A stretch of 64,000 nt of DNA from positions 1,576 through 65,575 of the IMG/VR virus record IMGVR_UViG_3300035670_000190; one strand, 5' to 3'. Position 1 is the stretch's first letter. Every line of letters starts with the position of its first letter. The stretch comes from a virus. Its lineage: Duplodnaviria > Caudoviricetes. The translations under genes were made by a program, and so were the position numbers. The notes below the pieces were generated by a model. It worked only from the letters and a program-made list of their open reading frames with translations. It had not been told where the DNA came from and made no database searches. Shown here piece after piece: positions 25,974 through 45,319 of the stretch.

Positions 25974-28900
25974 ATGAGTGTATTAAAAATCTACAATGCA
26001 AATACCTCCCAGTGGGAAACAGCAGTTATTGGCGCTGCTGGTCCTCAGGGTCCACAAGGTCCTCAAGGTCCACAGGGTCCGCAAGGTCCTCAAGGTCCAC
26101 AAGGAATTGATGGTCCGCAAGGACCACAGGGACCAACTGGTGTAACAGGTCCTCAAGGTCCACAAGGTATCACTGGTCCTCAGGGACCACAAGGACCTCA
26201 AGGTGTCACTGGTGATACAGGACCACAAGGTCCTCAAGGACCACAAGGCATTCAAGGTGAAACAGGACCACAGGGTCCACAAGGACCACAAGGACCTCAA
26301 GGTCCGCAAGGTATAGATGGTCCACAAGGACCTCAGGGACCTCAAGGACCACAAGGCGTTCAAGGTATTCAGGGTGAAACAGGACCGCAAGGTCCTCAAG
26401 GTCCACAGGGACCAACTGGCGTCACTGGTGACACAGGACCACAAGGTCCTCAAGGTATTACTGGTGACACAGGACCACAAGGTCCACAGGGACCAACTGG
26501 TGTAACAGGTCCACAAGGTCCTCAGGGTCCTCAAGGTATCGTTGGTCCACAAGGACCTCAAGGACCACAGGGTCCTCAAGGTATCGCTGGTCCGCAAGGT
26601 CCACAAGGTGTTGATGGTGATACTGGACCACAAGGTCCACAGGGACCAACTGGCGTAACAGGTCCTCAAGGTCCACAAGGTATCGTTGGTCCTCAAGGTC
26701 CACAAGGACCGCAGGGTATCGCTGGTCCTCAAGGTCCACAAGGACCACAAGGTCCTCAAGGTATTATTGGTCCACAAGGACCTCAAGGACCGCAGGGTCC
26801 TCAGGGAACAACTGGTAATACAGGTCCGCAAGGTCCACAAGGACCTGCTGGTCCAACGGGTCCATCAGGAACTGGTACAGGCAATCCTGGATCTACTCGA
26901 AATTCATATACTGGTGATGGCAACACAGCAATCTTTTCACTGACTGTTCCACCAACAAGCGAAGAACATACTCTCGTTTTCATTGATAGACTTTTGATTG
27001 TCAATTCAGAGTATTCTATCACTGGTGCAAACTTAACATTTACTGCTGCTCCAGATGATGGCGCAGCAATTGAAATTTATACAATTGGTGATTCTGGTCC
27101 ACAAGGTCCAACAGGTCCTTCTGGCGCTGCTTCTACAGTAGCTGGTCCTCAAGGTCCTCAAGGTCCACAAGGCGCTGCTGGTCCGCAGGGTCCTGCTGGT
27201 GTTGCAGGTCCACAGGGTCCCCAAGGTCCTCAGGGCATTGCTGGTCCACAAGGTCCGCAGGGTAATATTGGACCACAAGGACCACAGGGTCCTCAAGGTA
27301 TCGCTGGACCACAGGGTCCGCAAGGCGATGAAGGTCCGCAGGGTCCACAGGGACCTCAAGGCGCACAAGGTGAAATTGGACCACAAGGTCCTCAGGGCGT
27401 TCAAGGTGCACAAGGCGATATTGGTCCTCAGGGTCCGCAAGGACCTCAAGGTCCATCAGGTGCAACAGGAGATGTTGGTCCACAAGGTCCTCAAGGACCT
27501 CAAGGTGTTGCTGGTCCTCAAGGTCCTCAAGGTATTGCTGGACCACAGGGTCCACAGGGACCTCAAGGTGTTCAGGGTGACATTGGTCCGCAAGGACCAC
27601 AAGGACCACAGGGTGCTGCTGGTCCACAAGGACCACAAGGTCCTCAGGGTCCACAGGGTGTTGCTGGTGACGCAGGTCCTCAAGGTCCTCAAGGACCAAC
27701 TGGTGTAACAGGTGACGTTGGTCCACAAGGTCCACAGGGACCTCAAGGTCCAAAGGGCGACACTGGTGAATTTGGTGGCGCAACGTTTGAATTTGTATAT
27801 TTGACTGACACCGCAAATAGCGATCCAGGCATTGCTAATGTTAAGTTTGATAGCGTTACATTTACTAGTGTTACAACGATGTATATTAACTGCATCGATG
27901 ACACTGGCGCAAATATTCACAATTATCTACAAACCATTGATGATTCTACTTCTATCATCAAAGGTACATTCAAGATGGCAAATACTGCAAACGTTAATGA
28001 GTTTGCGTTCTTTGACATCAATGGAGCACATGATCATTTCAATGGTGGCGGCGAATACTTTGCTGTTCCTGTTGCACATACAGTAGGTATTACATCATTG
28101 ACTAATGGTGCAAATGTTATATTAACATTTGTTCGCACTGGTGATAAAGGCGACACTGGTCCGCAAGGTCCTCAAGGTCCACAAGGACCAACTGGTGTAA
28201 CAGGTGACACAGGTCCTCAAGGACCGCAAGGACCGCAGGGTGCTGCTGGACCACAAGGTCCACAAGGTGATGTTGGTCCTCAGGGTCCAGAAGGTCCACA
28301 GGGTCCTCAGGGTCCACAAGGTATCGAAGGACCACAAGGTCCACAAGGTCCTCAAGGTGTTGCTGGTCCTCAAGGTCCTGCTGGTGTTGAAGGTCCGCAA
28401 GGTCCACAGGGACCACAGGGTGTGGCTGGACCTCAAGGACCGCAAGGTCCACAAGGCATCCAAGGCGATACAGGTCCACAAGGTCCTCAAGGCGCTCAGG
28501 GTGAAATCGGTCCATCGGGTCCACAAGGTGAAGTTGGTCCACAGGGACCACAGGGACCACAGGGTGTTGCTGGACCACAAGGTCCTCAAGGTATCGAAGG
28601 ACCACAGGGTCCGCAAGGTCCTCAAGGTGTTGCTGGTCCTCAAGGTCCACAAGGTGATGTTGGACCACAAGGACCTCAAGGTCCACAGGGCGCAGCTGGT
28701 CCGCAAGGTCCTCAAGGTCCAGAAGGTGCAGCTTCTACTGTTCCTGGACCACAAGGTCCAACAGGTCCTGCTGGTCCAACAGGTCCTTCGGGCACAGGAA
28801 CTGGTAATCCTGGATCAACACGCAACGAATTTATTGGTGATGGTACAACCACTGAATTCACACTCACTGTTCCACCAACAAGTGAACAACATACATTAGT

Positions 28901-31565
28901 ATTCGTAGATTATATTCTACAAAATAATGCATCATACAATGTTGCGACTGCAAATATTGTCTTTACTGCTGCACCAGCAAACAATTCTGAAATTATCGTC
29001 TACACTATAGGTGACTCTGGTCCACAAGGTCCTCAGGGTCCGCAAGGCGTCGCTGGTGCAACAGGTCCACAAGGTCCATCAGGTCCACAAGGTGAAGTTG
29101 GTCCACAGGGACCACAGGGACCACAGGGTGTTGCTGGACCTCAAGGACCACAGGGTCCACAAGGTCCACAAGGTATTGCAGGACCACAGGGTCCTTCTGG
29201 CGCAGCAGGTGATGCTGGTCCACAAGGTCCTCAAGGTATTGCAGGACCACAAGGTCCACAGGGTCCACAAGGACCAGCTGGTACAAATGGTGATGAAGGT
29301 CCTCAAGGTCCACAAGGTCCTCAAGGTCCACAAGGTCCTCAAGGTCCTCAAGGTATTGCTGGACCACAAGGTCCACAGGGTCCACAAGGACCAAGCGGTG
29401 TCAATGGCGAAACTGGTCCAACAGGTCCTTCTGGCGTAACTGGTGACACAGGTCCACAAGGACCACAAGGTCCTACTGGCGCTGATTCAACTGTTCCTGG
29501 TCCTCAAGGTCCTCAAGGTCCATCAGGTGTAAATGGAGATGCAGGACCACAAGGTCCACAAGGACCACAAGGAGTTGCTGGAGATACTGGTCCGCAGGGT
29601 CCTCAAGGTCCATCAGGTGTAAATGGGGAAACAGGTCCACAGGGACCACAGGGACCACAGGGACCACAGGGTCCTCAAGGTCCTCAAGGTATTGCTGGTC
29701 CACAAGGTCCACAAGGTGATGTGGGTCCACAAGGTCCACAAGGTCCGACTGGTGTGACAGGTCCACAGGGACCTCAAGGTCCTGCTGGCGCTGATTCAAC
29801 GGTTGCTGGACCACAAGGTCCACAAGGACCTGCTGGTCCAACTGGTCCATCAGGAACTGGCACAGGCAATCCTGGTTCTACGCGCAATGAATTCACTGGC
29901 GATGGTGGAACAACAGAGTTTACACTTACCGTTCCTCCAACAAGTGAAGATCACACTCTTGTATTCGTAAGCACAGTTCTTCAAAATAATTCAACATATA
30001 ACATTGCGGGCGCAAACGTTGTATTTTCAGAAGCACCAGAAGCAAACGCCGAAATTATTGTTTACACTATTGGTGACTCTGGACCACAGGGTCCACAAGG
30101 TCCACAGGGTGCTGCTGGAGATGCAGGTCCTCAAGGTCCACAAGGACCAAAAGGTGACACAGGCGAATTTGGTGGCGCAACGTTTGAATATGTATATCTA
30201 ACTGATACTGCAAATTCGGATCCTGGCACTGCTAATGTTAAATTTGATAATACTGCGTTTGATAGTGCTACAACGTTGTATATTAATTGTATCGATAGTA
30301 CTGCTGCAAATATTCATAACTATTTGCAAACAATTGATGATTCGACATCTGCTATTAAAGGCACATTTAAGATGGCAAATACTGCAAACGTTAATGAGTT
30401 TGCATATTTCTCTATCACAGGAAGCCATGATCACTTTGAGTCAGGCGGTGCTGAATACTTTGCAGTCCCTGTTGCTCATCTCAATGGCATTACATCATTA
30501 ACAGACAGTACAAATGTTACGATGACATTTGTTCGCACTGGTGATAAGGGCGATACAGGTCCTCAAGGACCACAAGGTCCACAGGGTGCTGCTGGTGATA
30601 CTGGTCCACAAGGTCCACAAGGTCCTTCTGGCACAGCAGGTGATACTGGACCACAAGGTCCACAAGGACCACAGGGACCTCAAGGCGCTGCTGGTGATAC
30701 TGGTCCACAGGGACCACAGGGACCTCAAGGTCCGCAAGGTCCTCAAGGTATTGCTGGTCCGCAAGGTCCACAAGGCGATGTTGGACCACAAGGACCCCAA
30801 GGTCCGACTGGTGTGACAGGACCACAAGGACCTCAAGGTCCAGAAGGTGCTGCATCAACTGTTGCTGGACCACAAGGTCCTCAAGGTCCATCTGGTCCTG
30901 CAGGAGCAAATGCTGAACCATCACAAGTTTATGCAGATCTATTCACTGGAACTGGTGCTTGCACTGTATTCACGCTTTCAAGCAATTCAACAACGAATAC
31001 TGTGTATGTGTTCTTGAATGGTGTTGCTCAAGTTCCAAATACTGATTACACTGTTTCAAATAATTTGCTTACGTTTACAAATGCACCAGAAAATAATGCA
31101 AATGTAGATGTTCGTGTATTTGGAAATGTGTCAATAGTTGCTGGAAGTGGTGGTGGATCTGGAACAACTGTCACTCGCGATGAATACTCTGGCGATGGCG
31201 CAAATACTGACTTCACACTATCAACAACACCAACAAGCGAAGATTATACGATTGTCTTTGTTGATAGCGTTCTTCAAAGAACTGATGCTTATAATGTTGC
31301 AACATCTACTTTGTCATTTAATGTAGCACCAGAAGCAAATGCTGAAATTGATGTCATTACAATTTCTGGTGGCGGTGGAGATTCTGGAATCACAGTTTCT
31401 CAAAATGGTTCAAATGACATTGTAAGCAACACGATAAACTTCATAAATACTTCAACAGTCACCGTTGAGACTTCAAATAACAGCGGAGTTGTAAATGTTG
31501 CATTTACAAGCACTGGTGGAATTACAACAGGTAAAGCCATTGCTATGGCTATGATTTTTGGATAG
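25974..31565 (+). CDS. collagen-like fibre protein 2 (1863 aa)
   Basis: GPQ runs interrupted by five (F/Y)xGxG domains and two GATFE domains; ends [15 protein letters not shown]. Confidence 0.88.
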
Positions 31566-31574: not shown

Positions 31575-31934
31575 ATGGCAGCACCAAATATAGTCGGTGT
31601 TACAACAATTACTGGTAAAACAGCAGTTCAAGCAGTAACTGATGCAGCAAATACCATCGTGAGCAATTCCGCTGCAAGTGGAAAAGTTTTTAAAGTTAAC
31701 ACTTTAATTATTTCTAATGTTGATGGAACAAATGGTGCTGATATTTCAGTAGACGTTTTTAGAGATAATACTGCATTTCATATCGTAAAAACTGTAACAG
31801 TCGACCCCGATTCAGCATTTTCTGCAATAGATAAAAACTCATTTATCTACCTTGAAGAAGGTGATGCTCTAAGATTGACAGCTTCCGCAAATGGTGATTT
31901 AGAAGCAGTATGTTCTTATGAGGAAATTAGCTAA
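31575..31934 (+). CDS. ~110-aa adaptor-like virion protein (MAAPNIV type)
   Basis: AGGAG RBS; KVNT..ISNVDG and IYLEEGD motifs; ends SYEEIS; paralogous to 35858 and 40064. Confidence 0.75.
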   Translation: MAAPNIVGVTTITGKTAVQAVTDAANTIVSNSAASGKVFKVNTLIISNVDGTNGADISVDVFRDNTAFHIVKTVTVDPDSAFSAIDKNSFIYLEEGDALRLTASANGDLEAVCSYEEIS

Positions 31935-32833
31935 TGGGCTATTTGCGAAATATGGGTTTTATGGGCAAAAATATGCCCCTTAGAACACAGACAAAAGCTG
32001 GATTGTTTAATCATGGTGATTTGACTTTTAATTTAGAAGGCACAGCACCAGTAGGAATTCAATTTGCTGAAAGCTACATTGCTTCTACTGGTGGAACTTT
32101 GACTCAATATACTGGTGGAAGTGATTTAACTGCAACACTTGATACTTATGCAGGAAATTCTTCTGGAGATGCTTTATATTTACCCGCAGGAGTATATACT
32201 GTCAATACTGCATATAGTTCTAATTTTTTAGGGCTTCAATACAGTTCGCATATATTTCCATCTGGGTATTATGGTGTTTTTGGTGCAGATCCTGATCAAA
32301 CAATAATTTTGGCAGATGTGAATACAGCAAGAAGAGCAGACAATTGTCTCATAAGTTGGGAAGATAATGTTAATATTAAACTTACCTGCGGATATATGAC
32401 GATTAGAACAAAAGCATATTCAACCACAAATTATGAAAGTGCGTTATTTCACGGCACAGGCAGTACTGCTTTAACTTATGCATATTTCAAAAATGTTGCA
32501 ATTAATAGAGAAGGAACTTCTTTTTCTATGCTATATGATAATGATGGAGATACAGGAATTATTTTATTGGAAAATTGCTCTATTGGAAATAATTCTGGAT
32601 TTACTGGAAACTATGCTGGAAGTCGAACGAATAAGAGAGCATTAAATTGTCTATTTGCACCTAATATCACAACAACTCAATGGGGTGTATTAACTGATTG
32701 TATTGTGAATGGTGCTTATTTTACAGTTGGAATGAATGGTATTTTAGATTATGACTATACGCCTACTGGTGTTTTTGGTACTGTCGGTCATAGATATGGT
32801 CGTTTCGATACTACTTGGGTAGAGCCAACATAA
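31934..32833 (+). CDS. putative parallel beta-helix (pectin-lyase-like) head protein
   Basis: GDALYLPAGVYTV...GADPDQTII resembles the N-terminal cap of right-handed beta-helices; followed by Asn/Cys-containing beta strands; TAATG coupling to 31575. Confidence 0.5.
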   Translation: MGYLRNMGFMGKNMPLRTQTKAGLFNHGDLTFNLEGTAPVGIQFAESYIASTGGTLTQYTGGSDLTATLDTYAGNSSGDALYLPAGVYTVNTAYSSNFLGLQYSSHIFPSGYYGVFGADPDQTIILADVNTARRADNCLISWEDNVNIKLTCGYMTIRTKAYSTTNYESALFHGTGSTALTYAYFKNVAINREGTSFSMLYDNDGDTGIILLENCSIGNNSGFTGNYAGSRTNKRALNCLFAPNITTTQWGVLTDCIVNGAYFTVGMNGILDYDYTPTGVFGTVGHRYGRFDTTWVEPT

Positions 32834-33066: not shown

Positions 33067-33087
33067 GTTTCAAAGAAAAGATAAAAA

Positions 33088-35856
33088 ATGACAACAATAG
33101 TAACAGTAGAATTTGGTGGAACAGGCGCGAATAATGCTAATGATGCATTGACAGCGCTTGGTGCTGCATCGGCTGAATCTGCAAATGCCGCCGCGAATAC
33201 AGTCCGCGTTTCGCAAAATGGTGCATCAACACTTTCTGCTAAACAACTAAACTTCGTAAACACTGCAAATGTGACAATTTCTGTCACTGATGCTGGTGAT
33301 GGAAATGCGAATGTTGAAATTTTCTCTGCTGCTGGTGGCGGTGGAGGTGGAGAAACTGGACCTCAAGGACCGCAAGGTCCACAAGGACCGCAGGGTCCAC
33401 AGGGAATTGAAGGACCACAAGGTCCTCAAGGTCCCCAAGGCGTTGCTGGCGATGCAGGTCCACAGGGTCCACAAGGTCCACAAGGAACTGCTGGCGACAC
33501 AGGTCCTCAGGGACCACAGGGTCCACAGGGACCGCAAGGCATTGCAGGACCACAAGGTCCACAGGGTGTTGCTGGACCGCAGGGACCACAAGGTCCTCAG
33601 GGTGTAACTGGACCTCAAGGTCCACAAGGTCCGCAAGGTGTTGCAGGTCCGCAGGGTCCGCAGGGTCCACAAGGACCACAAGGTGTTGCAGGTCCACAAG
33701 GTCCACAGGGCGCTGCTGGCGATGTTGGTCCGCAAGGTCCACAAGGACCTTCTGGCGCTACGGGTAATACAGGTCCACAAGGTCCTCAAGGACCACAAGG
33801 TGTTGCTGGTGACACGGGTCCACAAGGTCCTCAAGGTCCAGAAGGTGCTGCATCAACTGTTGCTGGTCCGCAAGGTCCACAAGGACCTGCTGGTCCAACA
33901 GGTCCATCAGGAACTGGCACAGGTAATCCTGGTGCGACTCGCGACGAATTTACAGGTGACGGAACAACAACTGAATTTACTTTGACTGTTCCGCCAACAA
34001 GCGAACAACACACATTGGTTTTTGTTGCTACTGTTCTTCAAAGTAATTCTTCATACAATATTGCAAGCGCTAATGTAGTATTTGCAGAAGCACCTGCAAA
34101 TAATGCAGAAGTTATTGTTTATACCATTGGTGACTCTGGTCCACAAGGACCAACTGGACCATCAGGTCCATCAGGTTCTGGAGATACTGGACCTCAAGGT
34201 CCACAAGGACCACAAGGTGTTGCTGGTGATACGGGACCACAAGGTCCTCAAGGTCCAACTGGTGTAACAGGTGATGCTGGACCACAAGGTCCTCAAGGTC
34301 CCCAAGGTGTTGCAGGTGATACAGGTCCACAAGGACCACAAGGACCACAAGGACCACAGGGTATCGAAGGTCCACAAGGTCCACAAGGTCCACAAGGTCC
34401 GCAGGGTCCACAGGGTATCGAAGGACCACAAGGACCACAAGGACCACAGGGTATCGAAGGTCCACAAGGTCCACAGGGACCTCAAGGACCGCAAGGCGTC
34501 CAAGGCGATGCAGGTCCACAAGGTCCACAAGGACCTCAAGGTCCTCAGGGTGTAAAGGGAGACACTGGAGACTTTGGTGGTGCAACTTTTGAATATGCTT
34601 ATTCAACTAATGTTGCAAACACTGATCCAGGCGCAGGATTTTTGAAGTTTGATGATATAGACTTAGCAAATGCTAACACGCTTATCATCAATTGTTTGGA
34701 TATAGATAACGCTAATGCTCACAATTATCTTCAAACTATTGATGATTCAACCTCCGCAATTAAGGGTACATTTAAAGTTGCAAATACTTCCAATATAAAT
34801 TATTTTGCATACTTTAGTATCACAGGAAATCATACTCATTTAGATGGCGGTGGCGAATATTTTGCAGTCCCAATAGCTTTCTTAACTGGTGAAACATCGT
34901 TTAATGATGGGGCAAATGTCGTAATTACATTTGTTCGTACTGGAGATAAAGGTGATGCAGGTCCTCAAGGTCCGCAGGGTGTTGCAGGCGATACAGGTCC
35001 ACAAGGACCACAAGGACCTCAAGGACCACAGGGACCACAAGGCATCGAAGGACCACAGGGTCCACAAGGTCCACAAGGTATTGCTGGTCCACAAGGTCCA
35101 CAAGGACCTCAAGGACCTCAAGGACCGCAAGGCATCGAAGGTCCACAAGGACCACAGGGACCTCAAGGTCCTCAGGGTCCAGAAGGTGCTGCATCAACTG
35201 TTGCTGGTCCGCAAGGTCCTCAAGGTCCGTCAGGACCAAGTGGTTTGTCTGAATTCTTAGTTTCTGCAAACAGCGTTTCAACAGTAAATGCAAATTCAAT
35301 TAACTTTGTAAATACTGCAACAATCACCGCAGAAGTTTCAGCTGGTCCAGATGGAAATGCAAATATAGCATTTACAGTCATTGGTGGAGGCGGTGGTGGA
35401 ATATCATTCACCTCTTCAAATACTGCTCCAGAATCACCAAGTGCTGGTGATGAGTGGTTTGATACAGAATCAGGTGCACTGTTCAAATATATAACTGATG
35501 CAGACTCAAGTCAATGGGTAGAACTCAGTTCACCAAACAACTGGACTACACTGGGTGACGTTTCTTCTGGTGGTGGAAGTAGTGGTGTTGCTGTCGTTCG
35601 GAATGAATTCACAGGTGACGGTGCAAATACTGATTATACTCTTACAACTGCACCAACGGATGAAGCGCATACTCTTGTCTTTGTCGACAATGTTTATCAA
35701 AGTAATGCAGCGTATAATGTTTCATCAACAACTTTAAGTTTCACTTCTGCGCCAGATGCAAATTCAAATATCGCAGTTTATATTTTCTCTGGTGGAAGCG
35801 GTGGAACGACAACAACTGAATCAGGATTTAATCCATTCTTATTAGCAGGAATGTAA
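33088..35856 (+). CDS. collagen-like fibre protein 3 (922 aa)
   Basis: N-terminal GGTGA...LG, GPQ runs, two FTGDG domains, one GATFEY domain and AP.SP..GD.WFD motif; ends FNPFLLAGM. Confidence 0.88.
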
Positions 35857-35857: not shown

Positions 35858-36193
35858 ATGGCAACGACATATAAAGTTTTAGGACAAGCAGCACTTACAC
35901 AGAATACGACATCAAATGTCTATACTGTTCCTGCAGCAACACAAGCAGTAATTTCAACCATAGTAATTTGTAATAGAGGTGCAGCAAATACTGTTTATAG
36001 ATTAGCAGTACAACCTGCAGGTGCTGCTCTTGCAAATCAACATTTTATCTCCTATGATACCGTTCTTCCGCAAAATGATACAATTGCACTAACACTTGGC
36101 ATCACACTTGGAAATACTGACGTCATTTCTGCAAACACAGAAGCAAGCAATGATAACGTATGTATAACTATTTTTGGATCAGAGATCACTTGA
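35858..36193 (+). CDS. ~110-aa adaptor-like virion protein (MATTYKVLGQ type)
   Basis: YTVPA.T.AVISTI.ICN and LTLGITL...D motifs; ends FGSEIT. Confidence 0.75.
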   Translation: MATTYKVLGQAALTQNTTSNVYTVPAATQAVISTIVICNRGAANTVYRLAVQPAGAALANQHFISYDTVLPQNDTIALTLGITLGNTDVISANTEASNDNVCITIFGSEIT

Positions 36194-36194: not shown

Positions 36195-37151
36195 ATGTCG
36201 ATTAAATCTGTTAAAAATTCATCATTTAGTGAAAAAAGATTTAATTTTTTAAATGCTCGAGCATTGAGAGGACTTCTACAATCTCAAGGAACTGTAAGTG
36301 GATATGCGAGTGGAGGATTTACTGGACCAGCAACAAATTATAATATTATTGATAAATTCCCATTTGCTACAGACGCCAATGCGACTGATGTTGGCGATTT
36401 AACACTGGCGAGAAGAGAAGTTGCAGGTCAAAGTTCTCCATTTTTTGGTTATGGATATACCAGTGGTGGATATAGTCCAGCCAGAAACACTATTGATAAA
36501 TTTCCATTTGCTTCTGATGGTAATGCAACTGATGTTGGCGATTTAAGTGTATCAAGGAGAAATTTAACAGGACAAAGCTCTGAAACGCATGGTTACAGCA
36601 GCGGCGGAGGTCCACCAAATTTAAATACAATTGATAAATTTCCTTTTGTAGCGGAAACTAATGCCACTGATGTTGGAGATTTGCCACTTGCGAGATATGG
36701 TGCTGCAGGTCAAAGTTCCAGCACACATGGATATAATAGCGGTGGAGTCCCCATTCCACTTGCTCCCGCTGCAATCACTAAATTCCCATTCGCTTCTGAT
36801 TCAAATGCAACTGCAATCGCAGGACTGTCAGTTGCAAGATACGCCATAGCAGGACAAAATTCTAGTGAATATGGATATACATCAGGAGCTGGAACTCCTG
36901 CAGGTAATGTGATTGATAAATTTCCATTTGCATCGGATGCAGACGCTACTGATGTTGGTGATTTGACTGTAGATAGGAGTCGGGGCTCAGGGCAAAGTTC
37001 TTCTTCTTCAGGATATACCTCTGGAGGATTTATTGGACCAAACGTTCAACTTAATACTATCGATAAATTTCAATTTGTAGCAGATGGAAATGCTACTGAT
37101 GTTGGCGATTTAACTGTTGCACGACAGTTATCTGCAGGTCAGCAATACTGA
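36195..37151 (+). CDS. six-repeat Kelch-like beta-propeller protein A
   Basis: Six [39 protein letters not shown] repeats; ATG 36195 lies just after the upstream TGA. Confidence 0.8.
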   Translation: MSIKSVKNSSFSEKRFNFLNARALRGLLQSQGTVSGYASGGFTGPATNYNIIDKFPFATDANATDVGDLTLARREVAGQSSPFFGYGYTSGGYSPARNTIDKFPFASDGNATDVGDLSVSRRNLTGQSSETHGYSSGGGPPNLNTIDKFPFVAETNATDVGDLPLARYGAAGQSSSTHGYNSGGVPIPLAPAAITKFPFASDSNATAIAGLSVARYAIAGQNSSEYGYTSGAGTPAGNVIDKFPFASDADATDVGDLTVDRSRGSGQSSSSSGYTSGGFIGPNVQLNTIDKFQFVADGNATDVGDLTVARQLSAGQQY

Positions 37152-37158
37152 GAAATGA

Positions 37159-38373
37159 ATGTCAATCACAAGAGTCATTCCTGTATCATTATCAACCGAA
37201 ATCAGCGAGAGCACCTCTGCTGATCTTGTAATCTCAACAGCCACTTATCCTGACAGTGCAAATGGTGCATCAAACACTGGCGGTGATACTGTCATATTGA
37301 CTGGTAGCAATTTTGATGCAAACATTGCGATCTACGTCAATTCAAATCTTGTTTCAAATATTAATGTTTCAAATTCGAGTTATCTAACCTTTTCTTCTCC
37401 TACACTTGACATCAACAAATATATCATCTATGCTGTAAATCCAGATGGAACAACAGGTGTGTTCGCTGAAGGATTGAATGTGATTGAGGTGATAGCTGGT
37501 GGGTTTCAAGGAACAGTGAGTGGATATACGAGCGGCGGTCAAACTCCTTCACCCCCAGTTGGTACTAATGTTATAGATAAATTCCCATTCGCCTCTGATG
37601 CAAATGCAACAGATGTTGGAGATTTAACTGACACCAAGTTTGCAACAGCTGGGCAAAGCTCACAAGAAAATGGATATGTTTCTGGCGATTTCCCCGCCGT
37701 GACCGATATTGAAAAATTTCCATTTGCATCTGACACTAATGCAACCAATATTGCAGACTTAACGCAAGGTCGATACCAAACAGCAGGACAAAGTTCTCCT
37801 GTGAATGGGTATACTACTGGTGGAAGAGTCGGACTACCAACAGGTGGAAGAAATACCATCGATAAATTCCCATTCGCCTCTGATGCAAACGCAACTGATG
37901 TTGGCGATTTGACTGCATCAAGAAGAAATGTTGCGGGACAAAATTCAAATGATAATGGATATACTAGCGGCGGAAATTCACCACCAACAATATTCGACGT
38001 CATCGACAAATTCCCATTCGCTTCTGATGCTAATGCAACTGATGTGGGAGATTTGACTGAAGAAAGAGCTGGACTAGCAGGTCAAAGTTCAACACAGAGC
38101 GGATATACCAGCGGTGCTGGTTTAACTCTTGATACAGTTGATAAATTCCCATTCGCTTCTGATGCCAATGCAACTGATGTTGGAAATTTGACTGAAGGGC
38201 GAAATGGACCTACGGGTCAAAGTTCAACTGCGAGCGGATACACTAGTGGTGGATTAGTACCACCACCACGAGTTAACACAATTGACAAGTTTCCCTTTGC
38301 CTCTGATGCCAATGCAACTGATGTTGGGGATTTGACTGTTGCAAGATCAGCAGGTTCAGGTCAACAAGTCTAG
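37159..38373 (+). CDS. IPT/TIG-like domain plus six-repeat Kelch-like propeller B
   Basis: GGDTV.LTG.NF...V.NPDG Ig-like domain followed by six repeats. Confidence 0.8.
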   Translation: MSITRVIPVSLSTEISESTSADLVISTATYPDSANGASNTGGDTVILTGSNFDANIAIYVNSNLVSNINVSNSSYLTFSSPTLDINKYIIYAVNPDGTTGVFAEGLNVIEVIAGGFQGTVSGYTSGGQTPSPPVGTNVIDKFPFASDANATDVGDLTDTKFATAGQSSQENGYVSGDFPAVTDIEKFPFASDTNATNIADLTQGRYQTAGQSSPVNGYTTGGRVGLPTGGRNTIDKFPFASDANATDVGDLTASRRNVAGQNSNDNGYTSGGNSPPTIFDVIDKFPFASDANATDVGDLTEERAGLAGQSSTQSGYTSGAGLTLDTVDKFPFASDANATDVGNLTEGRNGPTGQSSTASGYTSGGLVPPPRVNTIDKFPFASDANATDVGDLTVARSAGSGQQV

Positions 38374-38392
38374 GTCTACAAACATAGAAACA

Positions 38393-38400
38393 AATAAATA
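38393..38400 (+). promoter_or_regulatory. probable late promoter variant AATAAATA
   Basis: 7/8 match, intergenic, upstream of the AGGAG RBS of 38429. Confidence 0.55.
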
Positions 38401-38428
38401 GAACGAAACTCTAGGAGAATTCCTCAAA

Positions 38429-39643
38429 ATGGCAATTACAAAAATCCCATCAATCGCTCTCTCCACTGAAGTTGCTGCGAATCTAAGTGGTCTAAGAGTC
38501 ACTTCGATCTCTTATGCAAGTGGCAGTGGAGCTGCAAACTCAGGCGGCGATACGATTACACTCACAGGAGCTAATTTTGATGCGAATCTAGAGATTTATA
38601 TTAACAGCGAACTCGTTTCAAATATTAATGTTGCCAACTCCACTTCTGTTTCGTTCACTTCTCCAGATGTTCCAATTGGTGTTTATGTGATCTATGTTGT
38701 AAATCCAGATGGAAAGACTGCGATTGTTGCTCCTGGTCTAAATGCGATCGAAGGTTATACATTCCAAGGAACAGTGAGTGGATATACGAGTGGTGGGCGA
38801 AATCCCGCCATTGGTACAACTATTTCGAACACAATTGACAAATTCCCATTTGCATCTGATGCCAATGCAACTGATGTTGGGGATTTGACAGGCAATTTTC
38901 AAGATACTGCAGGTCAAACTTCTTCTGTCAGCGGATACACTAGCGGTGGATACACCCCAGTCTCTGCATGGACAAATATAATTCAAAAATTTCCATTTGC
39001 ATCCGATACTAATGCAACAGATGTTGGCGATTTAACTAAACAAGTAAATTCACTAGCAGGTCAAAGTTCAAGTGATAATGGATATACTGCTGGGGGGTTT
39101 ATATCCCCCACAACCAGAAGTAATATTATCGATAAGTTTCCGTTCTCTTCTGACACAAACGCTTCTGACGTTGGAGATTTGACACTAGCAAGGGGTGCGT
39201 CTGCTGGTCAAAGCTCTTCTGAAAATGGGTATACGAGCGGTGGATTCACTAATAATATAACTAACGTCATTGATAAATTCCCATTCGCAACAAATGCAAA
39301 TGCAACTGACGTCGGAGATTTAACTGAAGCAAGAACTGGCGCAGCAGGACAAAGTTCATCCACTAGTGGCTATACTAGTGGTGGTGGTGGTTATGGTCCG
39401 CCAGTTTTTAACACAATTGACAAATTTTCATTTGCTTCTGATGGTAATGCAACTGATGTTGGTGATTTGACACAAGCGCGAGTTTCAGTTGCAGGTCAAA
39501 GTTCTACTGTTAGTGGTTATTCTAGTGGTGCACCTGAATCAGGTAATGTAATAGACAAATTCCCTTTCGCTTCTGATTCTAATGCAACTGATGTTGGTGA
39601 TTTGAGTCAAGCTCGAGGTCGGGCTGCAGGTCAACAAGTATAA
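38429..39643 (+). CDS. IPT/TIG-like domain plus six-repeat Kelch-like propeller C
   Basis: Tandem paralogue of 37159 (both 404 aa) with the same architecture but different loops. Confidence 0.8.
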   Translation: MAITKIPSIALSTEVAANLSGLRVTSISYASGSGAANSGGDTITLTGANFDANLEIYINSELVSNINVANSTSVSFTSPDVPIGVYVIYVVNPDGKTAIVAPGLNAIEGYTFQGTVSGYTSGGRNPAIGTTISNTIDKFPFASDANATDVGDLTGNFQDTAGQTSSVSGYTSGGYTPVSAWTNIIQKFPFASDTNATDVGDLTKQVNSLAGQSSSDNGYTAGGFISPTTRSNIIDKFPFSSDTNASDVGDLTLARGASAGQSSSENGYTSGGFTNNITNVIDKFPFATNANATDVGDLTEARTGAAGQSSSTSGYTSGGGGYGPPVFNTIDKFSFASDGNATDVGDLTQARVSVAGQSSTVSGYSSGAPESGNVIDKFPFASDSNATDVGDLSQARGRAAGQQV

Positions 39644-39664
39644 AAGTATAACAGGAAATAGAAT

Positions 39665-40051
39665 ATGGCTATTAATTTTCCAGGTTCACCGTCAAACGGT
39701 CAAAAATATACGTTCGGAAATCGAACTTGGCAATACAATTCAACATCAAATGCATGGTATGTTGCATCAAACACAACAAACATTTTGTCAGATTCATTTA
39801 CCGCAAATGGCAGCGTGAATACATTCACGCTCTCACAGACAACCAACACTATTACTTGTCTTGTGACTGTTGATGGTGTTTTATTGGTTCCAACAACAGA
39901 CTATAGTATTTCAAATAATACAACATTAACGTTGAATTTCATGCCTCCAAATGATTCAATCATTGAGGCAAGATCATTTACAATCGATCCATCAGTTACA
40001 ACATCAAGTTCATCTGGAGTGTCACTTGGTTTAGTGATCGCTCTTACATAA
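39665..40051 (+). CDS. short fibre-linker protein (MAINFP motif plus FTANG domain)
   Basis: MAINFPGSPSNGQ.Y...TW.Y....W, one FxGxG-type domain; ends GVSLGLVIALT. Confidence 0.7.
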   Translation: MAINFPGSPSNGQKYTFGNRTWQYNSTSNAWYVASNTTNILSDSFTANGSVNTFTLSQTTNTITCLVTVDGVLLVPTTDYSISNNTTLTLNFMPPNDSIIEARSFTIDPSVTTSSSSGVSLGLVIALT

Positions 40052-40063
40052 TCGGAGAATAAA

Positions 40064-40390
40064 ATGGCAGAAACATTTAAGATGTATAACGCATCACTGA
40101 CAACAGAAACAGCGAATGTTTATGTTTGTCCAGCAGGAACAACAGCAATTTTTATATTAGGGCAAGTTGCAAATGCTGATGGAGCAAACTCTGCAGACAT
40201 GACTATTGTGGCTACAGATAGTAGCAATACAAGCACTAAGTTTCTTGCAAAAACGATTCCTGTTCCTTCCGATGCAGCAACAAGTTTTTTGACTGGTAAG
40301 TTAGTATTGGAAGCTGGAGATTATCTTGCTGGAAGTGCAAGTGCAAATGATCATCTAGATGTTACTGTGAGTGTGCTTGAGATCACTTGA
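40064..40390 (+). CDS. ~110-aa adaptor-like virion protein (MAETFK type)
   Basis: VY.CPAGTTAI....VAN and GKLVLEAGD motifs; ends SVLEIT; GGAG RBS. Confidence 0.75.
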   Translation: MAETFKMYNASLTTETANVYVCPAGTTAIFILGQVANADGANSADMTIVATDSSNTSTKFLAKTIPVPSDAATSFLTGKLVLEAGDYLAGSASANDHLDVTVSVLEIT

Positions 40391-41397
40391 TGAATAACTT
40401 TATTGGAAAAAGAAATTTACTAGGCACAGCACCTGCGAATACTGCAGGTATTTGGTCTCTTGGAAGCATCAATCAAATGCGCCAGTATAGATTTATCAGA
40501 GATAGTGGTAGTACACAGGCGCAAGGAAATATTAGTGGATATTCAAGTGCTGGCACATCCTCACCAACAACTAGAGTAAATACCATCGACAAATTTCCAT
40601 TTGCGGCAGATGGCAATGCCACTGATGTTGGAGATTTGACTACAGTTAGAAATGATCTTTGGGGTCAAAGTTCTGCGACCAATGGATATTCGAGTGGCGG
40701 ATTTATTCCTGGGCTAACTAATATAATTGATAAATTTCCATTTGCAACTGATGCCAATGCTACTGATGTTGGTAATTTGACTGTTGCAAGAACATATGGT
40801 GCAGGTCAAAGTTCTAATGATAATGGATATGCCACAGGAGGTGTTAATCCACCAAGCACAACCAGTTATAATATTATAGAAAAGTTTCCATTTTCAACAG
40901 ACGCAAATGCAACTGATGTTGGAGATTTAGTGCAAGGCAGACAAAAAGCAGTAGGTCAAAGTTCCGCAGAAAATGGTTATTCCTCTGGTGGTGGATCTTC
41001 ACCAACAAGTTCAACTTCTACCATATATAAATTTCCATTTGCTTCAGACACTAATGCATCTTTTGTTGGCGATTTAACTGAAACTAGAAGACACTCCTCT
41101 GGACAAAATTCTGTACAAAATGGTTATGCAAGTGGAGGATTGAATCCAACTATTTCTAATGTTATCGATAAATTTCCATTCGCAACAGATGCGAATGCAA
41201 CTGATGTTGGGGATTTAACTCAAACAATAGATCGCCCTGCAGGTCAAAGTTCATTGATAAGTGGGTACTCTACTGGAGGACTAAATCCAGCTATATCTAA
41301 TGTTATCGAGAAATTTTTATTTGCTTCTGATGGAAATGCTGCTGATGTTGGTGATCTAACAGTGGGTAGATTTTCTTTTGCAGGTCAACAGGTATAA
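40390..41397 (+). CDS. six-repeat Kelch-like propeller D
   Basis: TGATG coupling to the adaptor; N-terminal FIG...AGIWSL; six repeats ending AGQQV. Confidence 0.8.
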   Translation: MNNFIGKRNLLGTAPANTAGIWSLGSINQMRQYRFIRDSGSTQAQGNISGYSSAGTSSPTTRVNTIDKFPFAADGNATDVGDLTTVRNDLWGQSSATNGYSSGGFIPGLTNIIDKFPFATDANATDVGNLTVARTYGAGQSSNDNGYATGGVNPPSTTSYNIIEKFPFSTDANATDVGDLVQGRQKAVGQSSAENGYSSGGGSSPTSSTSTIYKFPFASDTNASFVGDLTETRRHSSGQNSVQNGYASGGLNPTISNVIDKFPFATDANATDVGDLTQTIDRPAGQSSLISGYSTGGLNPAISNVIEKFLFASDGNAADVGDLTVGRFSFAGQQV

Positions 41398-41400: not shown

Positions 41401-41646
41401 ATGAGTGAAAAAATTTATCGTATGTATGGAATTAACACAGCTGTTGAACTTCTTCGCCCAAAAGCAAAATGGGAGTGGACAGGCGGTGTTGGATTTACTC
41501 GTTGGGATGACCCACGACCATGTCCAACTAAAGAAGAAGTTGAAGAGACCATGGAAAAAATTAAAAACTTTGAAGACTCCATAAATACCATATGGACAGA
41601 AGAACAAATTCAAGAAATCACACAACACTTTGAGGAGAATCAGTAA
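41401..41646 (+). CDS. XkdW-like small tail protein
   Basis: A..LLRP.A.W....W.DPRP.PT.EE pattern. Confidence 0.6.
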   Translation: MSEKIYRMYGINTAVELLRPKAKWEWTGGVGFTRWDDPRPCPTKEEVEETMEKIKNFEDSINTIWTEEQIQEITQHFEENQ

Positions 41647-42011
41647 TGGCACATTTTGCACAACTGAATGAGAATAATGTCGTAACACAAGTAATTGTTG
41701 TCGCAAATAAAGACACTGCAGATGCAAATGGTGTTGAGAAAGAACACATTGGTGCTGCATTTTGCGAAAAACTTTTGGGCGGCACATGGAAACAAACGTC
41801 ATATAACGCAAACTTTCGCAAGAACTATGCAGGCATTGGTTATACTTACGACGCAGATCGTGATGCATTTATTCCACCAAAACCATTCAACTCATGGGTT
41901 TTAAATGAAGAAACTTGTCACTGGCAAGCACCAACGCCAATGCCAGATGATGGTAAAGTTTATTCATGGAATGAAGAAACAACGTCGTGGGTTGAAGTTT
42001 CAGCTGAGTAA
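41646..42011 (+). CDS. conserved phage protein (MAHFA family; tail-fibre-assembly-like C-terminus)
   Basis: MAHFAQL, W.QTSYN.NFRKNYAGIGY.YD...DAFI.PKP..SW and W.AP.PMP.DG..Y.W.E....W motifs. Confidence 0.75.
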   Translation: MAHFAQLNENNVVTQVIVVANKDTADANGVEKEHIGAAFCEKLLGGTWKQTSYNANFRKNYAGIGYTYDADRDAFIPPKPFNSWVLNEETCHWQAPTPMPDDGKVYSWNEETTSWVEVSAE

Positions 42012-42048: not shown

Positions 42049-43797
42049 ATGACACAAAAAGTTTCAATTTTCATGGGTGGTACAGGCGCAAATAGTGCCT
42101 CTGCAGCAAGAGAAGCACTTGGTGTTCCTTCAACAGAAACAACCAATGCAGCCGCCAATACAGTCCGTGTTTCTCAAAATGGTGCCTCTACTTTAGATTC
42201 AAAACAACTGAACTTTGTAAACACTGCAAACGTCACAATCGTTGTTACAGATTCAGGAAACGGAAACGCTAATATTGAGTTTGATGTTGCTGGCGGTGGC
42301 ACTGGTCCACAAGGACCACAGGGACCACAAGGTGTCGCTGGTGACACAGGACCTCAAGGTCCACAAGGTCCTCAAGGTGTTGCTGGTGATGCTGGACCTC
42401 AAGGTCCACAAGGTCCTCAAGGTGTTGCTGGTGACGCAGGTCCACAGGGTCCACAGGGTCCACAGGGACCACAAGGTGTTGCTGGTGACGCAGGTCCACA
42501 GGGTCCACAGGGACCACAAGGTGTTGCTGGTGACGCAGGTCCACAAGGACCACAAGGACCACAGGGTCCTTCAGGACCAACAGGAAATTCTATCACAATC
42601 ACAGCCAACAGTGGATCGAGTGCTATTGTTAACACTGTGAATTTTGTAAACACTTCAACAGTCACAGTTTCTGTTTCAAATGCAAATGGAATTTCAAATA
42701 TTGCATTGACCACTACTGCAGCTGCTGTCAATGTTGCCAGAAATTCTTTTGAAGGCGATGGTTCTAATACAGACTTTACATTAACACTACAACCTGCTAA
42801 TGAAGATCATGCTCTAGTATTTGTTGATCGTGTGCTTCAAAGAAACAACGAATATAATGTAACCACAACAACACTCAGTTTCACAAGTGCACCAGATGCA
42901 AACTCAGTGATCGATGTTTTTATATTTGGTGGAAGTGAAGCTGCTGCAGCTGGCGGATTTCAAGGAACCGTTAGCGGATATACGAGCGGTGGTCTTGCCC
43001 CAAGTTTAAATGTAATTGATAAATTCCCATTTGCATCTGATGCGAGCGCATCTGATGTTGGTGATTTAAGTGTCGCGAGATATGAAAATGCAGGTCAAAG
43101 TTCCACTGCTAGTGGATATACTTCGGGTGGTGAATCTCCCATAACCAATGTAATCGACAAATTTCCATTCGCAACAAATGGCAATGCGACTGACGTTGGC
43201 GATTTAACATTAGCGAGAAGAGGTCAAGCAGGTCAAAGTTCTAGCGCAAGTGGCTATAACTCGGGTGGAAATCCTACTACAAACATTATTGATAAATTTC
43301 CATTCGCTTCTGACGCGAATGCTACAGATGTTGGCGATTTGACAGTTGGTAGAGCATTTATAGCAGGTCAAAGTTCTAGTGATAATGGATATACGAGCGG
43401 TGCATCTAATACTATTGATAAATTCCCATTCGCCTCTGATGGAAATGCGACTGATGTTGGAGATTTGACAGTTGGTAGAACATTTATAGCAGGGCAAAGT
43501 TCTAGCACGAGCGGATATAACTCAGGTGGCATTCCTGCTCCAAGTAATGGAAATATCATTGATAAGTTCCCATTTGCATCTGACGCTAATGCAACAGATG
43601 TGGGCGATTTAACTGTTGCAAGATATGGTCCTGCAGGTCAAAGTTCTACTGCCAGTGGATATTCAACTGGTGGTTATAGTTCTTCAAGTGTTACAGTTAA
43701 TACTATTGACAAGTTCCCATTTGCGTCTGATGGAAATGCAACTGATGTTGGCGATTTAACCGTAAGCAGAAGAAGCGGTGCGGGTCAACAAGACTAG
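42049..43797 (+). CDS. short collagen fibre fused to Kelch-like propeller E
   Basis: N-terminus closely similar to 33088, then a Gly-X-Y run, an FEGDG domain and six propeller repeats. Confidence 0.85.
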
Positions 43798-43808: not shown

Positions 43809-44273
43809 ATGGCAATTACTAAACTTCCAGATAGAGCTATTCAGCAACCATTTGCCAATGAATTGGATCTGAACAACACACTTAAATTGAAAGATGTGAT
43901 CGAAAAAATCACAGTGAATACTTCTGCCATGGGAGCAAATATTGCGTTTGATTTTCTAGAAAATTCAATAGTATATCATACAGCTAATTCCACTGCTAAT
44001 TCGACAATCAACTTTCGTGGAAATAGTAGTGTTTCTTTAAATGAATTTTTGTCTGCAAATCAAGCAGTAAGTGCTGCGATATTAATTACTAATGGCGCAA
44101 CGGGTTATACGATTGCAAATGTGCAAATCGATGGAAACACAGTCACACCAAAGCTCTCTGGAAATACAACACCTGTTGCAAATACAAATGCTGTTGATCT
44201 TTATTCATATACCATTGTTAAAACAGCAGATAGTCAATTCACGGTATTTGCTGGCAAAACAGAGTTTGTTTAA
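43809..44273 (+). CDS. putative fibre adaptor protein
   Basis: MAITKLP start; N.T.NFRG and VDLYSYTIVKT...FTVFA beta domain; 2 nt before propeller F. Confidence 0.65.
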   Translation: MAITKLPDRAIQQPFANELDLNNTLKLKDVIEKITVNTSAMGANIAFDFLENSIVYHTANSTANSTINFRGNSSVSLNEFLSANQAVSAAILITNGATGYTIANVQIDGNTVTPKLSGNTTPVANTNAVDLYSYTIVKTADSQFTVFAGKTEFV

Positions 44274-44275
44274 AA

Positions 44276-45319
44276 ATGCCACAATTTTCGCGACTATCTT
44301 CTAGAAGCTCGTTCACAGTTGCTGGTAGAAAATATATTTTCGACTCTACGCCTACTGAACCAACAGAGCCATATACTTTTCAAGGAACAGTTAGCGGTTA
44401 TACGAGCGGTGGAGCATATTTTTCTATTGTAAGCACTGTTGATAAATTCCCATTTGCCTCTGATACAAATGCTTCTGGTGTAGGCAATTTAACTCAAGCA
44501 AGAAATACTGTAGCAGGTCAAAGTTCTAATAGCAATGGCTACACGAGCGGCGGAAATGCACCATTAGCAACCAATACTATTGACAAGTTCCCATTTGCCT
44601 CTGATACAAACGCAACTGATGTAGGCGATTTGACTCAAGGAAGATATGGAGCGGCTGGTCAAAGTTCTACTCAAAGCGGTTACACTAGTGGGGGAAGAAG
44701 AATATCACCACCGCCTACGCCACCATTTGTTGTTAACTCTATTGATAAATTCCCGTTTTCAACAAACGCGAATGCCTCTGACGTCGGCGATTTGACATTA
44801 GGGAGATATGGTTTAGCAGGACAAAGTAGTGCTGATAATGGGTATACAACTGGAGGTCGTCCACCTCCTGGAGCTGGTCTCAATACAATTGATAAATTCC
44901 CATTTGCAACGAATGCAAATGCAACTGATGTCGGAGATTTGACACAAGCGAGATATAATCCTGCGGGTCAAAGTTCTGAAACTCATGGATATACAAGTGG
45001 TGGAACAAAATTTGCTCCGCCGTTCAATGCTCCACCAGTTGGTAATTATTATCAAAGAACGGTTGATAAATTTTCTTTTGCTTCTAATGCCAATGCAACT
45101 AATGTTGGCAACTTAACAGAAGGAAGAACTGGTGGGGCTGGTCAAAGTTCAACTATTAGTGGATATACTGGTGGCGGATATGGCGGTTATGTTCCTGGTT
45201 CTTATGTACCAGGGAATGTTAATACAATTGATAAATTTCCATTCTCTTCTGATGCAAATGCTTCTGATGTTGGCGATTTATCGCAAACGAGAGCATATGC
45301 TGCGGGTCAACAAGTATAG
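44276..45319 (+). CDS. six-repeat Kelch-like propeller F (longest, Pro-rich loops)
   Basis: Six repeats from [12 protein letters not shown] to AGQQV. Confidence 0.8.
   Translation: MPQFSRLSSRSSFTVAGRKYIFDSTPTEPTEPYTFQGTVSGYTSGGAYFSIVSTVDKFPFASDTNASGVGNLTQARNTVAGQSSNSNGYTSGGNAPLATNTIDKFPFASDTNATDVGDLTQGRYGAAGQSSTQSGYTSGGRRISPPPTPPFVVNSIDKFPFSTNANASDVGDLTLGRYGLAGQSSADNGYTTGGRPPPGAGLNTIDKFPFATNANATDVGDLTQARYNPAGQSSETHGYTSGGTKFAPPFNAPPVGNYYQRTVDKFSFASNANATNVGNLTEGRTGGAGQSSTISGYTGGGYGGYVPGSYVPGNVNTIDKFPFSSDANASDVGDLSQTRAYAAGQQV

Follow-up and report, generated by a model that had tools for sequence, protein, structure and literature searches.

The locus considered here raises the question of how a phage joins the collagen-like stalk of a fibre to a head encoded as a separate polypeptide, and of how, when several such fibres are encoded side by side, the right head comes to be placed on each stalk. 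The window, by which is meant the whole 64-kb stretch of DNA that was analysed, covers nearly the whole of a 65.6-kb IMG/VR virus fragment (record IMGVR_UViG_3300035670_000190). It contains three copies of a module in which a gene for a stalk or connector protein ending in a short hydrophobic peptide is followed by a gene for a protein of ~110 amino acids (aa), here called the adaptor, which is followed in turn by the gene for a head. This three-gene pattern is real and occurs far beyond chance. The sequences and their distribution make it reasonably likely that the ~110-aa proteins are a non-covalent fibre joint which exists in several orthogonal types, and this joint is probably a general clip-on joint of marine phages. 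The parts of the three modules are as follows.

25974..31565, + strand: stalk 1, 1863 aa, with collagen-like repeats, a DUF4183/T7-tail-like domain near the C-terminus, a Gly/Ser/Thr linker and a hydrophobic C-terminal peptide
31530-31562, + strand: the hydrophobic C-terminal peptide of stalk 1, 11 residues
31575..31934, + strand: adaptor 1, 119 aa, of the 'MAxPNIV...SYEEIS' type; match to the family hidden Markov model (HMM) at 1.4e-24
31934..32833, + strand: head 1, 299 aa, whose start overlaps the stop of adaptor 1 (TAATG)
33088..35856, + strand: stalk 2, 922 aa, with collagen repeats, a DUF4183/T7-tail-like domain, a linker and the C-terminal peptide FNPFLLAGM (35827-35853)
35858..36193, + strand: adaptor 2, 111 aa, of the 'MAxxYKxLGQ...GSEIT' type; HMM match at 1.2e-24; matches the N-terminal part of phrog_1276
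36195..37151, + strand: head A, 318 aa, a 30-aa leader and then six ~47-aa repeats; phrog_19111; junction with adaptor 2 TGAtATG
39665..40051, + strand: connector 3, 128 aa, with a T7-tail/DUF4183-like domain (weak Pfam match), a Ser-rich linker and the C-terminal peptide SLGLVIALT (40022-40048)
40064..40390, + strand: adaptor 3, 108 aa, of the 'MAExFK...VLEIT' type
40390..41397, + strand: head D, 335 aa, a 44-aa leader (MNNFIGKRNL...) and six repeats; its start overlaps the stop of adaptor 3 (TGATG)

The coordinates of the open reading frames (ORFs), the protein ends and the three junctions are as given in an earlier reading of this DNA, referred to below as the sequence-only reading, which proposed the three-gene pattern. 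The two long stalks are collagen-like (Pfam E-values of 3e-153 for 25974 and 6e-57 for 33088, with DUF4183 in 25974 at 8e-12), and because they are collagen-like they are taken to be trimeric. The gene at 39665 had been read as a third stalk; it does end in SLGLVIALT ahead of the adaptor gene at 40064, but its product is a collagen-free connector of 128 aa and not a long stalk. Two relatives of 39665 of similar length were found, both near-identical.

The association of the peptide with the adaptor was evaluated across viral genomes. When viral contigs were searched for back-translated ALAIALG followed by TAA, at least 120 stretches were obtained, and the co-occurrence counts reported here hold among the matches listed, 106 of the 120 being evaluable in that at least 330 nucleotides (nt) lie downstream. 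An adaptor-HMM domain begins within 150 nt of the ALAIALG stop codon in 99 of these 106, and in two further loci (L069 and L097) the adaptor comes after an interposed 149-aa gene, against a background in which 124 of the 4,325 open frames of the same 1.06 Mb match the adaptor HMM. The peptide is encoded among the 120 listed matches by 106 distinct 21-nt strings, and selection therefore acts on the peptide rather than on the DNA. Isolated phages contain the same arrangement: in HTVC010P, CRP-9 and S-TIM66 the gene before the adaptor ends in ...ALAIALG, the adaptor reads MANTFK...LEIT, and the next gene starts with MPYIGN or MPHIGN. When the association is examined in the reverse direction, starting from the adaptor, a hydrophobic C-terminal tail is found on the upstream gene in all 12 isolates picked by adaptor similarity, which were chosen for taxonomic spread among 42 listed of 90 tblastn records; the tails are ALAIALG (three times), PLIIALG, PFILALGD, PYILALGGGD, PFILALGGN, PLIIALDS, AIVFG, SIVFG, LGLGG and AWFMA. 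The co-occurrence of peptide and adaptor type across phage genomes, which the sequence-only reading had put forward as a check on its proposal, is thus strongly borne out, both in the 99 of 106 and in the recurrence of type pairs described below.

The three middle genes had been described as encoding proteins of 108-119 aa with a common pattern and an EI(S/T)-stop ending, and these proteins are homologous. BLASTP matches 31575 to 40064 at 1e-7 and 35858 to 40064 at 1e-4, all three match one HMM over the full ~108 residues at 1e-24 to 8e-49, and N37 and L82 (40064 numbering), a (G/T)D motif and the EI(S/T) end are common to them. Protein identity among adaptors is 20-45% over the whole length. 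A profile built from 37 diverse members and searched against 1.84 billion proteins, clustered at 50% identity, matched 10,791 cluster representatives at E<=1e-3 and 2,449 at <=1e-10, and tblastn finds the adaptor in 90 isolate records, from Synechococcus, Prochlorococcus and Microcystis phages, Pelagibacter podophages and roseophages. The three window adaptors have no Pfam match at E<=1, and none of the 37 family members has a meaningful one. A PHROG scan at E<=0.01 gave only phrog_1276, 11338 and 26609 for two of the adaptors and nothing for the third; the matched PHROGs are of 'unknown function', and the match to phrog_1276 covers just the first ~110 of the 325 positions of that profile. Searches for related PDB sequences with the adaptor sequence and profile returned noise only, and a candidate relative among the weak PDB matches (26la_X, E 0.093) was rejected, since it was reproduced neither by profiles nor by Foldseek. 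The family has neither a Pfam model nor a solved structure and has not previously been characterised.

The AlphaFold2 (AF2) model of adaptor 3 is a nine-strand jelly roll with a predicted local distance difference test score (pLDDT) of 90.9. The nearest solved folds found by Foldseek are generic jelly rolls, with template modelling (TM) scores of 0.44-0.68 at 9-21% identity: nucleophosmin cores, Bacillus Ena1B, TNF and a phage cement protein, with the pentameric nucleoplasmin/nucleophosmin cores at TM 0.68 and the best TNF (Eiger) at TM 0.44. In BFVD the model matches many viral proteins of ~110 residues at TM ~0.9, the few that are named being called 'virion protein' or 'virion structural protein'. 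Variants of the adaptor were also observed, in which a domain of ~105 residues is inserted in the jelly roll (P0130 and ~35 other 225-aa clusters) or in which the adaptor is present as a tandem double of 213-237 aa (P0142, P0170, P0191 and P0179, the first three being relatives of adaptor 2).

The question of whether different adaptors are paired with different peptides was addressed by typing the adaptors by their N-terminal signature and the upstream tails by their last residues. The following pairs recur.

Adaptor MANxF with tail A[LF]AIALG: 97, among the matches listed
Adaptor MAxPNIV (window type, module 1) with tail ..(I/V)FG: 4 of 4
Adaptor MAxxYKxLGQ (window type, module 2) with tail FLxGM: 2 of 2
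Adaptor MAExFK (window type, module 3) with tail LVIAL[TS]: 2 of 2
Adaptor MA..A.N.[FY].T in T4-like cyanophage isolates with tail TP[FLY]I[LI]AL[GD]..: 5 of 5

Seven MANxF adaptors were scored as having another tail; five of these (L026, L064, L074, L098 and L121) were so scored through the picking of a spurious overlapping frame, and they do hold the ALAIALG end, by construction, while the remaining two are L069 and L097. The tail types of the window are found again with the same adaptor types elsewhere. In the pelagiphage HTVC033P, a quite different phage, the upstream protein ends in ...VGKAIAMAIVFG and is followed by MATPNIVNV...SYEEL, which is almost window module 1, and the module 1 tail type accompanies this adaptor type in L025 and L064 as well. 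The module 2 tail type (as ..DAFLFGGM) precedes the module 2 adaptor type in L029, and a relative of 39665 in L007 ends in ...ASLGLVIALS before an adaptor that is 75% identical to 40064.

These recurrences are accompanied by little similarity in the flanking proteins. Adaptor 1 is 35-43% identical to the adaptors of HTVC033P, L025 and L029 (E 1e-17 to 1e-28), while the corresponding stalk bodies, compared with their last 15 residues cut off, are unrelated in two of three comparisons and the heads in all three. Adaptor 2 is 37% identical to that of L029 (E 6e-23), where the stalks share just a 56-residue stretch and the heads nothing. When modules 1 and 2 are taken together, a stalk stretch of ~55 residues is shared in two of four comparisons, both with L029, and the heads share nothing in any of the four. 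Every locus with two or more adaptors, the window included (11 of 11), has adaptors that are only 19-36% identical and that follow different upstream tails, and no stretch among the ALAIALG matches listed held two ALAIALG ends. It is on this pairing that the reading of several orthogonal joint types, each with its own peptide type, reasonably likely as we judge it, is based.

The adaptor is coupled on its other side to the gene that follows. Measured from the adaptor stop to the ATG that follows, the gap is -1 nt at the median and at most 4 nt in 80 of 103 cases, and the junctions in the window overlap or abut in the same way; the gap between stalk and adaptor has a median of 10 nt. Behind adaptors of the common MANxF type (type 1), 71 of 92 first downstream genes begin with the motif M-x(0-3)-[YF]-[ILVM]-G, as against 8 of 68 for the second downstream genes and, among the remaining ORFs with 100 codons or more, 35 of 1,090. 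The motif fits window head D (MNNFIGKRNL) and its L007 relative (MTSPFIGKRNL). The window heads do each carry, as had been noted from the sequence, a distinct short leader: the 30-44 residues before the first head repeat differ from head to head. The part of the three-gene rule that concerns the head leader is solid only for the common type, and not for window modules 1 and 2.

In a number of proteins the adaptor is not a separate chain. It is found fused N-terminally to LamG PF13385 (P0124-P0126), to a fibre with a Peptidase_S74 trimerisation chaperone (P0164), to a 780-aa head (P0165) and to a C-terminal domain of ~190 aa (P0266, P0314 and P0320), the LamG, Peptidase_S74-fibre and 780-aa head forms being noted for the adaptor 1 type; in P0235 and P0254 a fibre-like N-terminal segment stands ahead of the adaptor domains. 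The window also encodes a protein in which stalk and head are joined directly.

42049..43797, + strand: fused stalk-head, 582 aa, with a 33088-like N-terminus, collagen, a DUF4183 domain, the linker 'SEAAAAGG' and six head repeats, and without peptide, adaptor or leader

That 42049 combines stalk and head in one chain had been recognised from the sequence, and the domain comparison agrees. It has its N-terminus, collagen and DUF4183 domain in common with 33088 and its six-repeat head in common with heads A-F, and the 8-residue linker sits where 33088 has its linker and C-terminal peptide, with the head repeats following directly. From this layout it follows that peptide, adaptor and leader together stand in place of a covalent linker.

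The modules are also mosaic. In a sample of 100 type-1 modules, with proteins counted as unrelated when BLASTP gives no match at 1e-3, pairs with adaptors at least 70% identical have unrelated heads in 80 of 148 cases and unrelated stalks in 85 of 185; complete heads in type-1 modules range over 59-2,918 residues and stalks over 62-1,191. Since the joint is conserved and its flanks are not, stalks and heads have been shuffled around the joint in evolution. The proposal that orthogonal connectors permit heads to be exchanged between fibres is partly supported, in that cognate types recur, adaptors diverge within all 11 multi-adaptor loci and heads and stalks are mosaic, but its leader half is not solid in modules 1 and 2.

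Several annotations place the adaptor in the virion. The homologue in S-SCSM1 (gp27, 'virion protein') sits between a 'long tail fiber protein' and a 'tail fiber protein', both annotated virion proteins, and the homologues of S-TIM5 and MaMV-DC are named 'virion structural protein' in BFVD. For S-SCSM1, 45 virion proteins are reported to have been detected by mass spectrometry (PMC9602691). In the available parts of the literature on cyanophage and pelagiphage fibres, with supplements and subscription journals outside the scope, no description of the peptide or the adaptor family was found, and literature searches by peptide strings returned unrelated papers only. A paper on phiRIO-1-like podoviruses describes multi-polypeptide, T-even-like fibres in marine podophages, and its available part does not mention the adaptor protein described here (PMC4819975).

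The arrangement that we propose is one in which the jelly-roll protein would be a part of the virion and would act as the attachment module of the distal part of the fibre, the head. Its socket would recognise the short hydrophobic peptide in which the trimeric stalk encoded before it ends, and which a flexible Gly/Ser/Thr leash would hold out. The head polypeptide of some phages would itself begin with the joint domain, and in the window and in most marine phages this domain would be a separate chain, its synthesis coupled to that of the head by termination-reinitiation (TAATG, TGATG), the head bearing its own N-terminal leader; the stoichiometry, and the way in which the split adaptor would hold the head, are what we infer. 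A phage with several fibres would use different types, and each head would be addressed in this way to its own stalk. A wider proposition can be made, to which we give slightly less than an even chance: that ocean phages have a 'connector alphabet' of jelly-roll sockets, each reading its own C-terminal plug of 7-11 residues and so addressing interchangeable tips to stalks, and that this alphabet is common to SAR11 podophages, roseophages, Microcystis phages and T4-like cyanophages.

A number of observations weigh against this interpretation. The contacts between peptide and adaptor and between adaptor and leader are ones that we infer from sequence, no confident model having been obtained: the prediction of a complex of three copies each of 39665 and 40064 scored 0.29 and 0.10 against a mark of 0.32, with the 3:3 ratio guessed and the stalk chain lacking an alignment, and counts neither for nor against the joint. 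The jelly roll of the AF2 model is complete as a monomer, so that no strand is evidently lacking which the peptide could supply. No adaptor follows the ALAIALG end in 5 of the 106 evaluable matches, at least one of these being a chance match inside a 9-codon frame, and there are adaptor-family ORFs before which the gene has no hydrophobic tail (L068, L089 and L095; L008 and L032 are doubtful cases); the tail-less cases at L068, L089 and L095 are second adaptors, from which it follows that the peptide rule is not universal for the family. S-SRM01 has a MANVFK-type adaptor after a ..SIVFG tail, an exception which indicates that type classes based on the N-terminus are crude. The loci used for co-occurrence, type pairing and orthogonality were found through one peptide type, and related contigs among them are not independent. 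On the side of the head, the leader motif is absent from 21 of the 92 heads, the leaders of heads 1 and A do not fit it and no relative conserving them was found, and the gene just downstream of the adaptor in HTVC010P lacks the leader.

One alternative, which we regard as unlikely, is that the ~110-aa protein helps to assemble the tail fibre, as a chaperone or cap at the C-terminal end of the upstream stalk in the manner of Tfa, T4 gp38 or gp57A, and that the downstream gene encodes an independent fibre protein. A small gene just after a fibre gene is in the classic chaperone position, the coupling of peptide and adaptor would equally fit a chaperone that grips the fibre end, and some chaperones remain on the virion. 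Against this reading, the gene is coupled more tightly to its downstream than to its upstream neighbour, the adaptor is found fused N-terminally to head domains, and homologues in S-SCSM1, S-TIM5 and MaMV-DC are annotated as virion proteins, and it is because of these three that the chaperone is disfavoured. The adaptor moreover matches no chaperone family in Pfam or PHROG, and 42049 does without it for the same stalk and head domains.

It is also improbable, in our estimate, that the jelly roll is itself the distal, host-binding knob of the collagen stalk, in a non-covalent version of the C1q/TNF design, with the downstream proteins separate or accessory. Such a knob would agree with the collagen-like character of the stalks, with the resemblance of the fold to TNF-like, nucleoplasmin-like and phage cement jelly rolls, with the lack of a leader-bearing head directly after the adaptor in HTVC010P, and with the existence of tandem-double and inserted-domain adaptors, which are expected of a surface-exposed binding module. 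Host-binding tips are normally the most variable part of a fibre, however, while no part of the module is as conserved as the adaptor, which is at least 70% identical beside unrelated heads; in fusions the adaptor stands N-terminal to lectin-like and fibre domains, and the knob is disfavoured because of this conservation and this position. The strong association of the leader motif on the next gene with the adaptor is a further point against it. That the junction is mainly a recombination linker, whose conserved boundary DNA promotes shuffling with no protein-protein recognition, would account for the mosaicism around it and is highly improbable, since a DNA-level linker is rejected on account of the synonymous variation of the peptide codons (106 different 21-nt strings among the 120 listed matches), and since this variation, the 20-45% identity of the adaptors over their whole length and their confident fold indicate selection at the level of the protein.

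Other fibre genes of the window do not follow the rule proposed for the non-covalent joint.

19863..25915, + strand: a different type of connector, consisting of the collagen stalk 19863 and a directly following LamG-like head (ATG at 25121)
37159..39643, + strand: heads B and C, 404 aa each, with starts MSITRV and MAITKI, an IPT/TIG-like domain (TIG 1.7e-4) and six head repeats; they follow head A and have no adaptor of their own
43809..45319, + strand: a 154-aa protein (phrog_5906), then head F (347 aa, six repeats)

The pairs 19863 and LamG 25121, and 43809 and the last repeat head, had been taken for two-gene versions of the module, and they turn out to be different systems: 43809 belongs to phrog_5906 and is unrelated to the adaptors. 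The possibility that either 19531 or 43809 is a divergent adaptor was rejected, with hhalign probabilities below 1%. The end of 19863 also differs from the ..LYIV assigned to it, since DPNTLYIV is not at the very C-terminus. The sequence DPNT[LF]YIV lies 0-8 residues before the stop in 38 of 61 viral-contig matches (loci L137-L195; window 25080-25118), and after such ends a gene usually starts at -4 to +25 nt, with ..YLG.. often contained in its first ~25 residues. To judge by these sequences, this ending is a second recurrent type of connector, which would work without a separate adaptor. The gene at 19531-19866 encodes a 111-aa LtfC-like beta-sandwich and overlaps the start of the fibre gene 19863 (ATGA); it matches the L-shaped-fibre profiles phrog_1084 (6e-26) and phrog_3304 ('L-shaped tail fiber protein assembly', 1e-17), and Pfam LtfC at 0.0022, which is under the cut-off of that family. 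It may serve for attachment at the proximal end and not as a distal adaptor.

The N-termini of head B (37159), head C (38429) and the 154-aa protein at 43809 read MSITRVIP, MAITKIPS and MAITKLPD, and that of head A reads MSIKSV; starts of the form MA(L/I)(T/S)K(I/V) are also found after type-1 adaptors elsewhere (L016, L038, L059, L078 and S-SRM01). The three heads behind one adaptor may share a docking start. Heads A-F each consist of six IDKFPF...GQSS...GY.SGG repeats of ~47 residues. The propeller fold that had been assigned to them is unconfirmed, for although the six repeats are present, the AF2 model of head D, made from an alignment of the six paralogues, has a pLDDT of 38; the head D family is virus-only and uncharacterised. 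Head 1 (31934) had been called beta-helix-like, and its look-alikes in Atlas are indeed beta-helix/pectate-lyase-like, but their TM scores of 0.55-0.61 are under the bar for naming a fold, so that these models make head 1 possibly a right-handed beta-helix, as a lead only. Sequence searches of the PDB with heads D and 1 gave no match, and head 1 has no Pfam match.

The fibre genes extend over 15884-45319, all on one strand. They follow two large phrog_358 proteins, which come after the T4-type baseplate wedge proteins (phrog_261, 219, 17744 and 438) in the first 15 kb of the window. Megablast against isolate phages found no near relative of the region. The fibre protein at 15884-19480 (1198 aa) combines collagen repeats with a Peptidase_S74 (endosialidase-chaperone) domain at its C-terminus (Pfam 3e-14), and is self-contained, without a peptide/adaptor module. 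Two small conserved genes, phrog_21526 (81 aa) and phrog_7759 (121 aa, E 2e-51), lie between head D and 42049, at 41401-42011. The collagen-coding DNA (22000-30000) is ~52% G+C with a strong A-over-T skew, while the rest of the window is 35-42% G+C; both features of the collagen stretches are due to the codons of the GPQ repeat.

Elsewhere a protein of ~149 aa ending in ...SGG(T/R)LV(T/I)(L/S/I)-stop often comes after type-1 adaptors (L022, L028, L048, L068, L073, L101, L104, L107, L109 and L110), and next to it is a protein of ~125 aa that starts with MSTLKADTIQ and ends in ...GDLA; this pair may be yet another serial joint. At 3101-4973 of HTVC010P (L004) the gene annotated as 'putative tail fiber' (448 aa) runs into the following ORF, whose 178-aa product ends in ALAIALG, and a repeated domain is common to both. 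Beyond a GSTG repeat the 448-aa protein closes with an unusual tail rich in Cys and Trp, suggesting that the repeat is the site of a frameshift or of an error in sequencing.

Annotation is almost lacking for the fibres of the most abundant phages of the ocean, and the adaptor family lies in the fibre clusters of pelagiphages, roseophages and cyanophages. If the non-covalent joint is real, the succession of plug, socket and leader would be a rule readable from sequence, by which fibre architecture could be obtained from metagenomes and tips could be assigned to fibres. It would also explain the shuffling of host-range modules, and it would provide natural orthogonal connectors for the engineering and grafting of phage tips in laboratory systems, and well-defined targets for structural biology.

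That fibres can consist of several proteins joined by adaptors is in principle familiar, and several known systems resemble parts of the arrangement proposed here. The subunits of Bacillus Ena endospore appendages (PDB 7a02) are likewise jelly rolls of ~110 aa, with a leashed terminal connector peptide that reaches a neighbour, but they form a disulfide-locked homopolymer, and the TM score of 0.59 at 15% identity does not imply homology. In the C1q/TNF superfamily a collagen-like trimeric stalk carries a jelly roll, and in the adenovirus fibre tail on its penton base and in PRD1 P5-P31 a terminal fibre peptide docks on a jelly roll; the window shares with these the collagen-like stalk with a small jelly roll and the proposed docking of a short terminal peptide. 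It differs from C1q/TNF in that the jelly roll is a separate gene product and the likeness of fold is generic (TM 0.44 to Eiger TNF, 0.68 to the nucleophosmin core).

Tips are docked through conserved peptides in the K1-5/SP6 adaptor, in G7C gp63.1-gp66 and in Klebsiella dual-depolymerase phages, and Klebsiella anchor/adaptor receptor-binding systems are reportedly the subject of an engineering paper of 2026. Interchangeable tips, non-covalent attachment through short conserved terminal sequences or domains, and mosaic flanks are common to those systems and to the modules described here. In the anchor/adaptor systems the attachment is through a tail-proximal anchor or a T4 gp10-like branching domain, whereas the joint here would lie distally, where the collagen stalk ends, and the proximal partner would supply the plug as its C-terminal peptide; no sequence match links the two. 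The long tail fibre of T4 (gp34-gp35-gp36-gp37) is built from separately encoded trimeric segments, with small connectors encoded between them and a gene order that is the order of assembly. The window resembles it in having a segmented fibre with connector genes between the segments, in a T4-like baseplate gene context. It differs from T4 in that its adaptors match no hinge-connector family (gp35/gp36; PHROG at E<=0.01, and Pfam), and in that the adaptor is a jelly roll of ~110 aa paired with a hydrophobic C-terminal peptide of 7-11 residues, a combination which has several co-existing types and which is found in podoviruses and myoviruses alike.

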